From the IMG/VR virus record IMGVR_UViG_2671180349_000008: a stretch of DNA of 56,117 bases; one strand, given 5' to 3'. The position numbers were made by a program. Of this stretch, positions 32,801-35,800 are shown piece after piece. This stretch comes from a virus. Its lineage: Duplodnaviria > Heunggongvirae > Uroviricota > Caudoviricetes. Position 1 is the stretch's first letter, and the number at the start of each line of letters is the position of its first letter.

Positions 32801-35800
32801 AGGCAGCTATAACTGCACTTATCAACGGTGCGCCTGGCACACTGGATACGCTGAAAGAAATAGCGGCTGCGATCAATAACGACCCGAATTTCAGCACAAC
32901 TATCAACAATGCTCTGGCTCTTAAAGCTCCTTTAGCAAGTCCTGCATTAACGGGAATACCTACTGCGCCTACGGCTGCACAGGGCACAAACAATACGCAG
33001 ATCGCTACGACTGCTTACGTACGGGCTGCTATCTCTGCATTGGTCGGCTCATCACCTGAAGCTCTTGATACCCTGAATGAGCTTGCAGCAGCACTGGGCA
33101 ATGACCCGAACTTTGCGACAACAATGACAAATGCGCTGGCAGGGAAACAGCCACTTGATGCAACTTTAACCGCGCTTGCTGGTCTTGCGACAGGTGCAAA
33201 TAAATTGCCGTACTTTACCGGTACAGACACTGTTTCTCAGACTGACTTAACGTCAGTCGGTCGCGATATTCTGGCCAAAACAAGCGTTCTTGCTGTTATC
33301 CAATACCTTGGTTTAAGAGAACTCGGTACCAGCGGTGAAAAGATCCCCCTGTTGAGCACGGCTAACACATGGAGTGCACGCCAGACTTTCAACGGTGGGA
33401 TCACCGGGGCGCTGGCGGGGAACGCCGACACCACGACGAAATTAAAAACAGCCAGAAACATTAATGGCGTCAGGTTCGATGGTTCGGCTGACATTAATAT
33501 CAATACTCTGGTATCTCGCGGTCGCGTAACGGCCCTGGAGGCGAATGCACAGGGAACATCCGGGATTCAGCTGTATGAGGCATACAACAATGGCTACCCT
33601 TCTCCCTATGGGAATGTGCTTCACCTTAAAGGTGCCACCGCTGCTGGCGAAGGCGAGTTATTCATTGGCTGGAGCGGCACGAGCGGTGCCCATGCGCCCG
33701 TACATATCCGTTCGCGGCGGGATACTGATTCTTCCAATTGGTCTGACTGGGCGCAGGTCTATACGTCAAAAGATTCAATTCCCGGCGTCAATGCCAAAGG
33801 GGATCAGGATACCTCCGGCAATGCTGCTACGGCGACCAGATTGCAGACGGCGCGCACTATTAACGGTGTTTCGTTTGATGGTTCTAAAGATATTGAACTT
33901 AACCCACGGTCTATAGGCACAATCAACTCCACAACAATGTCTTTTAGTGGTGGTGCAGGATGGTTCAAGCTGGCAACTGTAACCATGCCGCAGGCAAGTT
34001 CTGTTGTTTCAATTACGTTGATTGGTGGCGCGGGATTTAACGTGGGGTCACCTCAACAGGCAGGTATATCTGAACTTGTTTTGCGTGCAGGTAACGGTAA
34101 TCCGAAGGGGATTACTGGTGCTTTATGGCAGCGCACATCGACAGGGTTTACAAATTTTGCCTGGGTTAATACATCTGGTGATACTTACGATATTTACGTT
34201 GCAATCGGAAATTATGCGACTGGTGTAAATATTCAATGGGATTATACCAGTAATGCCAGCGTGACGATTCATACGTCACCAGCATATTCTGCTAATAAGC
34301 CGGAAGGGTTAACGGACGGTACAGTTTATTCACTCTATACGCCATCAGAGCAGTTTTATCCGCCTGGCGCACCAATCCCGTGGCCATCAGATACCGTTCC
34401 GTCTGGCTATGCCCTGATGCAGGGGCAGACTTTTGACAAATCTGCATACCCGAAACTTGCAGCCGCTTATCCGTCAGGCGTGATCCCTGATATGCGTGGC
34501 TGGACGATTAAGGGCAAACCCGCCAGTGGTCGTGCCGTATTGTCTCAGGAACAGGACGGCATTAAATCACACGCCCACAGTGCCAGTGCATCCAGTACGG
34601 ATTTGGGGACGAAAACCACGTCGTCGTTTGACTACGGAACTAAATCAACAAATAACACAGGTGGTCATAATCACGGTGTTGGTGAAAATGTTTCTGTCAG
34701 TGCCGGCAGTGGCAAAACAGTAAATATGAGTACCGGCACCGTAAATCTTTACACCAAATCTGCTGGTGCGCATGCGCACACTGTCGGCATTGGTGCTCAT
34801 ATGCACACTGTTGCTATTGGTTCACACGGACACACCGTCACTGTTAACGCTACTGGTAACGCAGAAAACACCGTCAAAAACATCGCATTTAACTATATTG
34901 TGAGGCTTGCATAATGACTTTTAAAATGAGCGATAAAGCACGGACCATTCGTGTATTTAATTTTCTTGAAGATACAAAAGAATTTATCGGCAGTGGTGAC
35001 GCTTATATACCGCCTCATACCGGATTACCCGCAAACTGTACGGATATTGTACCGCCGGAAATCCCCGAAGGTTTTACAGCAATGTTTGATACTGCTGACA
35101 ATTCATGGCGTCTGGTTGAAGACCATCGGGGGGAAACGGTTTATTCAACAGAAACCGGAAATGCAGTCCCGATATCTGAACTGGGGGAACTTCCTGAAAA
35201 TGGCACATTTATTGCACCAGACGGAGAATACCAGCGCTGGGATGGCAGCCAGTGGGTGACGGATGAAGAGGCGAAGCGTGATGCGCTGATTAATCAGGCG
35301 GCAGAAAAGAAAGCCAGCCTGCTGAAACAGACCGGAGAACAAATCGCAATCTTACAGGATGCTGTTGATTTTGGTGAAGCAACACCAGAGGAACAGGAGC
35401 AACTGACAGCCCTCAGAAAATTACGAATAAAGTTAAATCGTATTCAACCGAAAAATGCACCAGATATCGACTGGTCAGACTTTGAATAAATTCCACAGCC
35501 GCCAGCAGGCGGCTTTTTATCATTCAGAGGCTCTATGTCTGTATTAATTTCAGGGGTGCTGATTAATGGCGCTGGCGTTCCGATGGCGGAATGCAAAATT
35601 TATTTAGATGCACTGGTTAATACCAGTGAAGTGGTTATTGAATCATTTGCGGTTATTGAAACTGATGCGGCGGGACAGTATGCCTTCGAAGCGCAAAAAG
35701 GCAAATACACTGTACATATTAAGCAAAAGAACGGCCCTAAGTGCTGCGTGGGTGATATTTCGGTTTACGACGACTCAAAGCCCGGCACGCTGAACGACTT

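Follow-up and report, generated by a model that had tools for sequence, protein, structure and literature searches.

The tail-fibre gene S of a P1-like phage-plasmid contains a 26-bp sequence that resembles the crossover sites of invertible fibre segments. We analyzed this site and its surroundings in a window of 56,117 nucleotides (virus record IMGVR_UViG_2671180349_000008), which is the whole of contig CYBW01000029.1 of draft assembly GCA_001283845.1. The window covers 56 kb of a replicon of ~90-100 kb, and all absences reported here refer to this window; a further ~35-45 kb of the replicon, as well as the host chromosome, lie outside it. By megablast, most of positions 134-50000 was covered by blocks that were 95.6-99.3% identical to P1 and lay in P1 order. 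This collinearity spanned the structural, immunity, replication/partition and lysis regions, and on this basis the element was assigned to the P1-like phage-plasmids (Punavirus). Punavirus genomes were also the closest records, with region 31000-38500 matching P1, P7, JL22, SJ46, RCS47 and D6. The contig corresponds to P1 positions ~66.1 kb down to ~15.3 kb and thus includes all that flanks the tail-fibre switch in P1, with R, 16 and bplA, as well as lydC, lydA and lydB, flanking the region collinearly.

In P1, the C segment is bounded by cixR, which lies in S, and by cixL, which lies next to cin, and it is inverted by the invertase Cin with the help of host Fis, which binds an enhancer within the cin gene. 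This inversion exchanges the 3' end of S and the chaperone gene, and thereby changes the host range. For the Hin, Gin, Cin and Pin systems alike, inversion requires two inverted sites, a serine invertase and a Fis-bound enhancer on one supercoiled molecule. The parts of such a system that were found in the window, together with the gene that carries the site, are as follows.

31948-34914, plus strand: S, an intact tail-fibre gene of 988 amino acids (aa), with the constant part Sc at 31948-33308 and the variable part Sv at 33309-34914 (Pfam Phage_fiber_2 and Collar)
33296-33321, plus strand: orphan cixR crossover site, TTATCCAATACC TT GGTTTAAGAGAA, i.e., two 12-bp half-sites around a central TT at 33308-33309
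33298-33899, plus strand: 0.6-kb inverted-repeat arm of the C segment, sole remaining copy, matching both arms of P1 (97%) and of JL22 (94.5%)
37803-38091, plus strand: 3' part of a serine invertase gene of the Gin/Pin type, covering residues ~99-193 (37807-38091), with the catalytic N-terminal part missing
38224-38448, minus strand: 5' stub of cin, with Cin residues 1-61 intact (38448-38266), followed by a diverged stretch that lacks 1 nt present in P1 cin and runs into a stop
38359-38430, minus strand: recombinational enhancer (sis) of the Cin system inside the cin stub; the P1 enhancer is annotated at cin nt 19-90

The cixR site in S

The sequence at 33296-33321 was identical to P1 cixR at all positions (26/26), within a segment (31000-33899) that was 97.2% identical to P1. 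A chance match is ruled out, because the site was inherited with this surrounding gene. Searched with 3 mismatches, the 26-mer occurred once in the window and had no match in 100 shuffled sequences. We also scanned the window with a half-site weight matrix, made from the half-sites read in P1 and in the Salmonella phage SJ46 (Punavirus), plus four half-sites of hix and gix. With this matrix the site scored 30.7 bits, and the top scores of 20 shuffles, which served as the null, ranged from 7.8 to 16.2 bits; the sequence is thus a member of the cix/gix/hix/pix family.

The central TT of the site coincided with the annotated crossover point of P1, where the C segment ends on its right and Sc meets Sv within S. 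Given that the S open reading frame (ORF) is continuous across this boundary, with the 26 bp encoding VIQYLGLRE, the site occupies the in-frame position between the constant and the variable part. Both the resemblance to Hin/Gin/Cin sites and the location at a constant/variable boundary of S had been proposed in the initial annotation, and both proved exact. When SJ46 was aligned with the window, the two sequences were collinear through the final base of the site and unrelated directly past it. Since the homology ends exactly at the right edge, the site must have acted as a module boundary in the past. Its perfect conservation is no independent evidence of selection on the site as such, because only ~0.7 differences are expected per 26 bp at 97% identity, and because the site also codes for part of S.

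Search for the partner site, the alternative cassette and an invertase

A partner site was sought with the full 26-mer, the cixL 26-mer, the inner half-site plus core (3 mismatches), degenerate patterns and the half-site weight matrix. In P1, JL22 and SJ46, which were used as positive controls, both sites of each pair were recovered at 28-33 bits, i.e., at 3797 and 8053 of the P1 locus (L001), 3797 and 9239 of the JL22 locus (L002), and 3796 and 7020 of the SJ46 locus (L003). No second cix site was detected in the 56 kb by the 26-mer, cixL, inner half-site plus core or weight-matrix scans, and the runner-up in the matrix scan scored 16.0 bits, which is within the range of the shuffles. P1 cixL differs from cixR at 4 positions, with the inner half-site and core common to both, and a search with the full 26-mer and 3 mismatches is therefore insufficient by itself. 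The absence of a partner, as stated in the initial annotation, accordingly held under four search designs with positive controls; the single 26-bp search with 3-4 mismatches that had been suggested there would miss a cixL of the P1 type.

Several candidate partners were rejected. Core-only and degenerate patterns pointed to 18908, 29859 and 45220 (TAACC..GGTTG-type cores), all of which scored within the shuffle range. The sequence at 38494-38519, TTAACAAAAACC AG TATGTGTGGAAA, was also discarded; its left half scored 12.3 bits, its right half scored -5.7 bits and its core was mismatched. The half-site TTAACAAAAACC lies upstream of the cin stub and is kept in both P1 (L001 8676, where it overlaps the predicted P1cin promoter) and SJ46 (L003 8093). 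The sequence at 38494-38519 may be the 'pseudo-cix' site that is reported at the cin promoter in the P1 literature.

The alternative cassette was likewise missing. No inverted repeats longer than 28 nt were found within 30-45 kb, there was no minus-strand copy of 33296-35489 in the window, and the 602-bp arm at 33298-33899 occurred once. By tblastn, the Sv' and U' proteins of P1, JL22 and SJ46 had no match in the window outside the expressed S gene. The interval that would hold the cassette was filled instead by plus-strand genes with their own start codons. These results uphold the earlier statement that neither an inverted Sv'/U' cassette nor a ~0.6-kb inverted repeat is present.

Searches by tblastn with P1 Cin and SJ46 Pin identified just two invertase pieces in the 56 kb, on opposite strands and with non-overlapping residues. 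No further matches with E below 1 were obtained in the 56 kb, and hence no intact serine invertase gene lies adjacent to the region. The cin stub occupies the P1 position of this gene, next to lydC. It was 93% identical by tblastn to Cin over residues 1-69, its DNA similarity was gone after ~nt 245, its ORF stopped at 38224, and Pfam recognized the N-terminal part of the Resolvase domain only. The same stub, 74 codons long, is present and annotated in SJ46. As the window was identical to P1 over cin nt 1-167, enhancer included, an enhancer in cis would, judged by its sequence, still be available. The Gin/Pin-type fragment was 87% identical by tblastn to SJ46 Pin (residues 82-193, with real similarity from ~99) and 65% identical to Cin. 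It matched Pfam HTH_7 and the tail of the Resolvase domain, and its homologue in SJ46 is complete.

We considered whether a Cin-mediated inversion might have split cin and so placed its fragments on opposite strands. This was rejected, since the fragments belong to two distinct genes (93% to Cin for one; 87% to Pin and 65% to Cin for the other). It is further ruled out by the DNA of the Mu com region that lies between the fragments, and by the occurrence of the same stub beside a complete pin gene in SJ46.

Taken together, the contig has kept cixR, one repeat arm and the enhancer, and retains neither the partner site nor the Sv'/U' cassette nor any intact invertase gene; the two inverted sites of a functional switch are not found within the window. 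The site is thus very probably the cixR of a tail-fibre inversion switch of the P1 type that has ceased to function. Because inversion needs two sites and one survives, S and its chaperone would be fixed in one form, with the 26 bp acting solely as codons, and we infer that no inversion takes place in vivo.

Junctions, history and relatives

The remaining features of the region, from which its history can be read, are listed below.

31502-31936, plus strand: R, tail-fibre structure/assembly gene upstream of S, a 144-aa ORF collinear with P1 R (PF26881 on record)
34914-35489, plus strand: U/Tfa-type assembly gene that pairs with the expressed Sv, a 191-aa ORF (Pfam Caudo_TAP) in the UMNF18-like block
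35497-35514, plus strand: terminator-like hairpin and T-run after U, with a 7-bp stem (6 G-C pairs) followed by TTTTT; a pattern match from a consensus scan only
35535-37151, plus strand: second fibre-like gene, 538 aa, with its own start codon and a prophage tail-fibre N-terminal domain (PF08400, E=5e-50)
37148-37720, plus strand: DUF4376 gene (Pfam PF14301, E=8e-16), in the same gene order as in the UMNF18 prophage
37801-37804, no strand: illegitimate junction between the prophage block and the invertase fragment, with the break between 37802 and 37803 at ~codon 98 of the invertase gene
38092-38208, plus strand: Mu-like DNA from the spacer between gin and com, plus the first 7 codons of com (ATGAAATCAATTCGCTGTAAG)
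38576-38857, plus strand: lydC, a 93-aa ORF, at which P1-like collinearity resumes

Within S, Sc and the initial 0.6 kb of Sv were 97% identical to P1, identity to JL22 extended to 34644, and from 34370 on the gene was 85% identical to a prophage of Escherichia coli UMNF18. The whole of 34370-37802 was ~85% identical to a chromosomal myovirus-prophage module of this strain, which carries on a single strand the 3' end of a fibre gene, tfa, a gene for a prophage tail fibre N-terminal domain and a DUF4376 gene. The second fibre gene, which was ~85% identical to the UMNF18 chromosomal prophage genes and to phiP27, occupies the place of the lost U'/Sv' cassette. Beyond the block, 37803-39999 was 97% identical to SJ46, 37933-38205 matched Mu 35515-35787 with 88% identity, a stretch that runs from the 3' end of gin through the spacer to the start of com, and 38216-45965 was 98% identical to P1.

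A three-way alignment placed the right-hand junction exactly. The sequence was UMNF18-like through 37802 and SJ46-like from 37803, with 'CA' alone shared, i.e., a 2-nt microhomology. The deletion on this side is real, because a junction with 2 nt in common cannot arise by repeat collapse and must be present in the reads. The junction was present in none of 5,426 complete E. coli genomes, its exact sequence was found in none of the viral, genome and metagenome contig collections, and the whole arrangement was not spanned by any record among the complete E. coli genomes, the PLSDB plasmids and the phages. Since no other record has the junction, the event looks private to this lineage. On the left side, the crossover would lie within 34370-34644 and was probably homologous, because this stretch is common to the prophage fibre and to Sv of the JL22 type.

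From these junctions we infer the following order of events. A Mu-like invertible segment with a gin-type gene and the start of com would have displaced the C segment of P1 along with two-thirds of cin from its 3' side, giving the state that is still intact in phage SJ46. A block from a chromosomal myovirus prophage (the Sv 3' end, tfa, the second fibre gene and the DUF4376 gene) would then have entered through a homologous crossover in Sv on one side and an illegitimate join in the gin-type gene on the other. With this second step, the alternative cassette would have been lost together with the partner site and the 5' end of the invertase gene. The Mu-like piece at 37933-38208, which lies between the two invertase fragments and is also found in SJ46, would record an old event in which the P1 C segment gave way to a G segment of the Mu type. 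The immediate ancestor was probably an SJ46-type hybrid, with a Mu-like invertible segment and a gin-like gene beside the cin stub. The initial annotation had described a locked fibre and a fossil of the P1 C-segment switch. The lock is borne out by the lack of a partner, cassette and second arm, and is made firmer by the death of the invertase, of which Cin residues 1-61 and Pin-type residues ~99-193 alone remain; the description of the fossil needs amending, in that its direct ancestor was probably this hybrid and not a plain P1 C segment.

The region shares with the P1 switch the complete cixR at the same place in S, the 97% identity of Sc and the repeat arm, and an identical cin nt 1-167 with the enhancer. 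Unlike P1, the window is without cixL, the second arm and U'/Sv', its cin is cut after ~codon 61, and its distal Sv and U are of the other type, as in JL22 and in prophages. The likeness to SJ46 covers 37803-39999 (97% identity) and includes the same invertase 3' end, Mu gin-com remnant, cin stub and lydC. In SJ46 the order is Sc, a site, two opposed fibre/chaperone cassettes, a second site, a complete plus-strand pin gene, the cin stub and lydC. SJ46 differs in having a pair of sites (L003 3796 and 7020), a pair of inverted cassettes for fibre and chaperone, and a plus-strand pin of the full 193 aa, whereas the window is without the partner site, the inverted cassette and the first ~98 codons of the invertase. 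With the G segment and gin of Mu, the window has in common the plus-strand fragment and the DNA after it (88% to the gin 3' end, spacer and com start), as well as an invertase that reads away from the segment. Unlike Mu, it has this gene as a fragment only, surrounded by P1-like sequence, and both the G-segment cassettes and a gix partner are missing.

The P1-like elements pO111_2 (a plasmid from E. coli O111:H-) and vB_EcoM-Ro157c2YLVW (an isolated phage) resemble the window in having a single S-tfa pair, no intact cin and an orphan cixR. In both, S-tfa-sacF is followed by lydA, and cin, Sv' and lydC are absent. Their deletions differ from, and are independent of, the arrangement in the window, in which a second fibre gene has come in as a replacement along with a DUF4376 gene, and two invertase fragments are left. 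Their orphan sites (L007 6297-6322 and L008 7297-7322, respectively) carry a G-to-A change next to the core (TTGATTT), which replaces Gly with Asp in S and may be the first step of site decay. The serine O-acetyltransferase gene sacF lies in or beside the fibre-switch region of JL22 (L002 6091-6567), pO111_2 (L007 8420-8992) and vB_EcoM-Ro157c2YLVW (L008 9420-9992), on the strand opposite to S-tfa; it is absent from the window.

Among the plasmids of PLSDB, the repeat arm was matched in 315 plasmids at 505 places, from which ~125 of the 315 would hold a single copy, some of them possibly with a diverged second arm. Similar losses have been described in the P1-like plasmids pSvP1 and pTZ20_1P, in which cin is truncated and a complete C segment is missing; one element keeps the N-terminal catalytic part of Cin only, and the switch was considered probably non-functional (Venturini et al., 2019; PMC6906374). 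The stretch lydC-cin-Sv'-U'-U-S has also been reported as a hypervariable region in a survey of P1-like phage-plasmids (PMC9603915). Such decay is thus recurrent and already published in P1-like plasmids, and the locus described here is not a new system.

The 538-aa PF08400 gene and the DUF4376 gene (35535-37720) are otherwise found in chromosomal myovirus prophages (UMNF18 and Shiga toxin-producing E. coli strains) and in phiP27. A second draft contig, CYGA01000059.1 (GCA_001284285.1; L006), encodes an identical 988-aa S protein with the same cixR. This contig is 8.9 kb long and stops within U, after ~445 bp of the gene, which points to a repeat boundary at this place in that genome.

Alternative explanations and implications

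Several points weigh against a switch that has ceased to work. The locus comes from one draft contig, and a partner site or a trans-acting invertase could lie elsewhere in the replicon or in the chromosome. The left crossover falls in sequence common to prophage fibre genes, where an assembly chimera has a small probability, and in the sibling assembly, which encodes an identical S protein, the contig ends within U. Finally, the site and the enhancer are still perfect. This perfection means either that the loss was recent or that the site was kept by protein-coding constraint, and neither bears on activity.

It is extremely improbable that the switch is alive, with the contig showing one isomer and the partner site and cassette lying on the unseen part of the replicon, or with the invertase of a co-resident prophage acting on cixR. 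Coverage of 56 kb out of ~90-100 kb leaves room for this, cixR and the sis enhancer are intact, and cross-complementation among Hin-family invertases of the Pin, Gin and Cin types is established. A trans-acting enzyme would still require two sites, however, and neither an above-chance second site nor an inverted cassette was found in the 56 kb. Moreover, all relatives examined have their partner site directly beside the invertase gene, at the distal end of the segment, and this position lies within the contig, where it is taken by the deletion junction. From the P1 map, the unseen part would correspond to pro/prt, darB, cre, c1, pac, the tail and head genes and ban, regions from which no cix sites are known.

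An assembly artefact, in which short reads jumped from the plasmid to a chromosomal prophage through shared fibre-gene repeats while the true plasmid remained invertible, is very unlikely. Such a jump would fit a contig from draft whole-genome shotgun data, a block (34370-37802) that otherwise matches only chromosomal prophages, and the break inside U in the second assembly. It does not account for the right junction, at which prophage-like DNA is joined to plasmid-specific DNA (the gin fragment, the cin stub and lydC) with 2 nt in common, and which by itself removes the 5' end of the invertase gene and the position where the partner site would normally lie. The cin stub, too, is genuine, as the finished SJ46 genome shares it. 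It is highly improbable, too, that the orphan site retains a residual role, either in rare invertase events with quasi-sites or as a joint for the capture of new fibre cassettes. Cin is reported to use quasi-cix sites with matching central dinucleotides (work of Iida and co-workers in the 1980s), and the end of the SJ46 homology at the last base of the site marks a past module boundary. Against such a role, the contig encodes no invertase, quasi-sites reach at best the scores of shuffled sequence, and the orphan site of pO111_2 and vB_EcoM-Ro157c2YLVW has gained its G-to-A change beside the core, as expected without selection as a site.

A different reading starts from the imported genes. A phase-variable single fibre might have been swapped for a fixed set of two, with the PF08400 fibre mounted on the P1-type baseplate beside S; if this were true, an expressed PF08400 fibre with its DUF4376 partner would give constitutive dual receptor specificity. 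This is very unlikely, given that the terminator-like hairpin separates U from the second fibre gene and that the N-terminal domain of the second fibre stems from another baseplate context. In a weaker variant, the orphan cixR and the invertases of co-resident prophages would together form a docking joint for the capture of fibre cassettes.

Outside the fibre region, the contig departs from P1 at its end (50029-56037), where it carries a mercury-resistance region. This includes merR (50029-50598, minus strand), a MerA-like oxidoreductase in two ORFs (51684-52967 and 52862-53377, possibly a frameshift) and a Mu/TniA-like transposase gene (54733-56037) that extends to the contig end and probably explains why the assembly stops there. 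The contig is also without a P1 match at 45965-48315. Here, in the variable region that holds isaA/IS1 in P1, a 370-aa Gram-negative porin gene was found at 46969-48081 (Pfam Porin_1, E=4e-148), which may correspond to the nmpC porin gene of P7 mentioned by Venturini et al.

For a switch that no longer works, the value of the finding lies mainly in annotation and in host-range expectations. Particles of this element would be expected to carry one fixed type of S fibre and to undergo no switching, which matters for predicting the hosts that it can transduce; the element also has the mercury-resistance region. The locus further illustrates clearly the decay of invertible fibre switches and their reconstruction through exchanged modules: the crossover site forms the exact boundary of swaps among P1, Mu-like and prophage fibre modules, and the leftovers of the invertase genes would record two successive replacement events.

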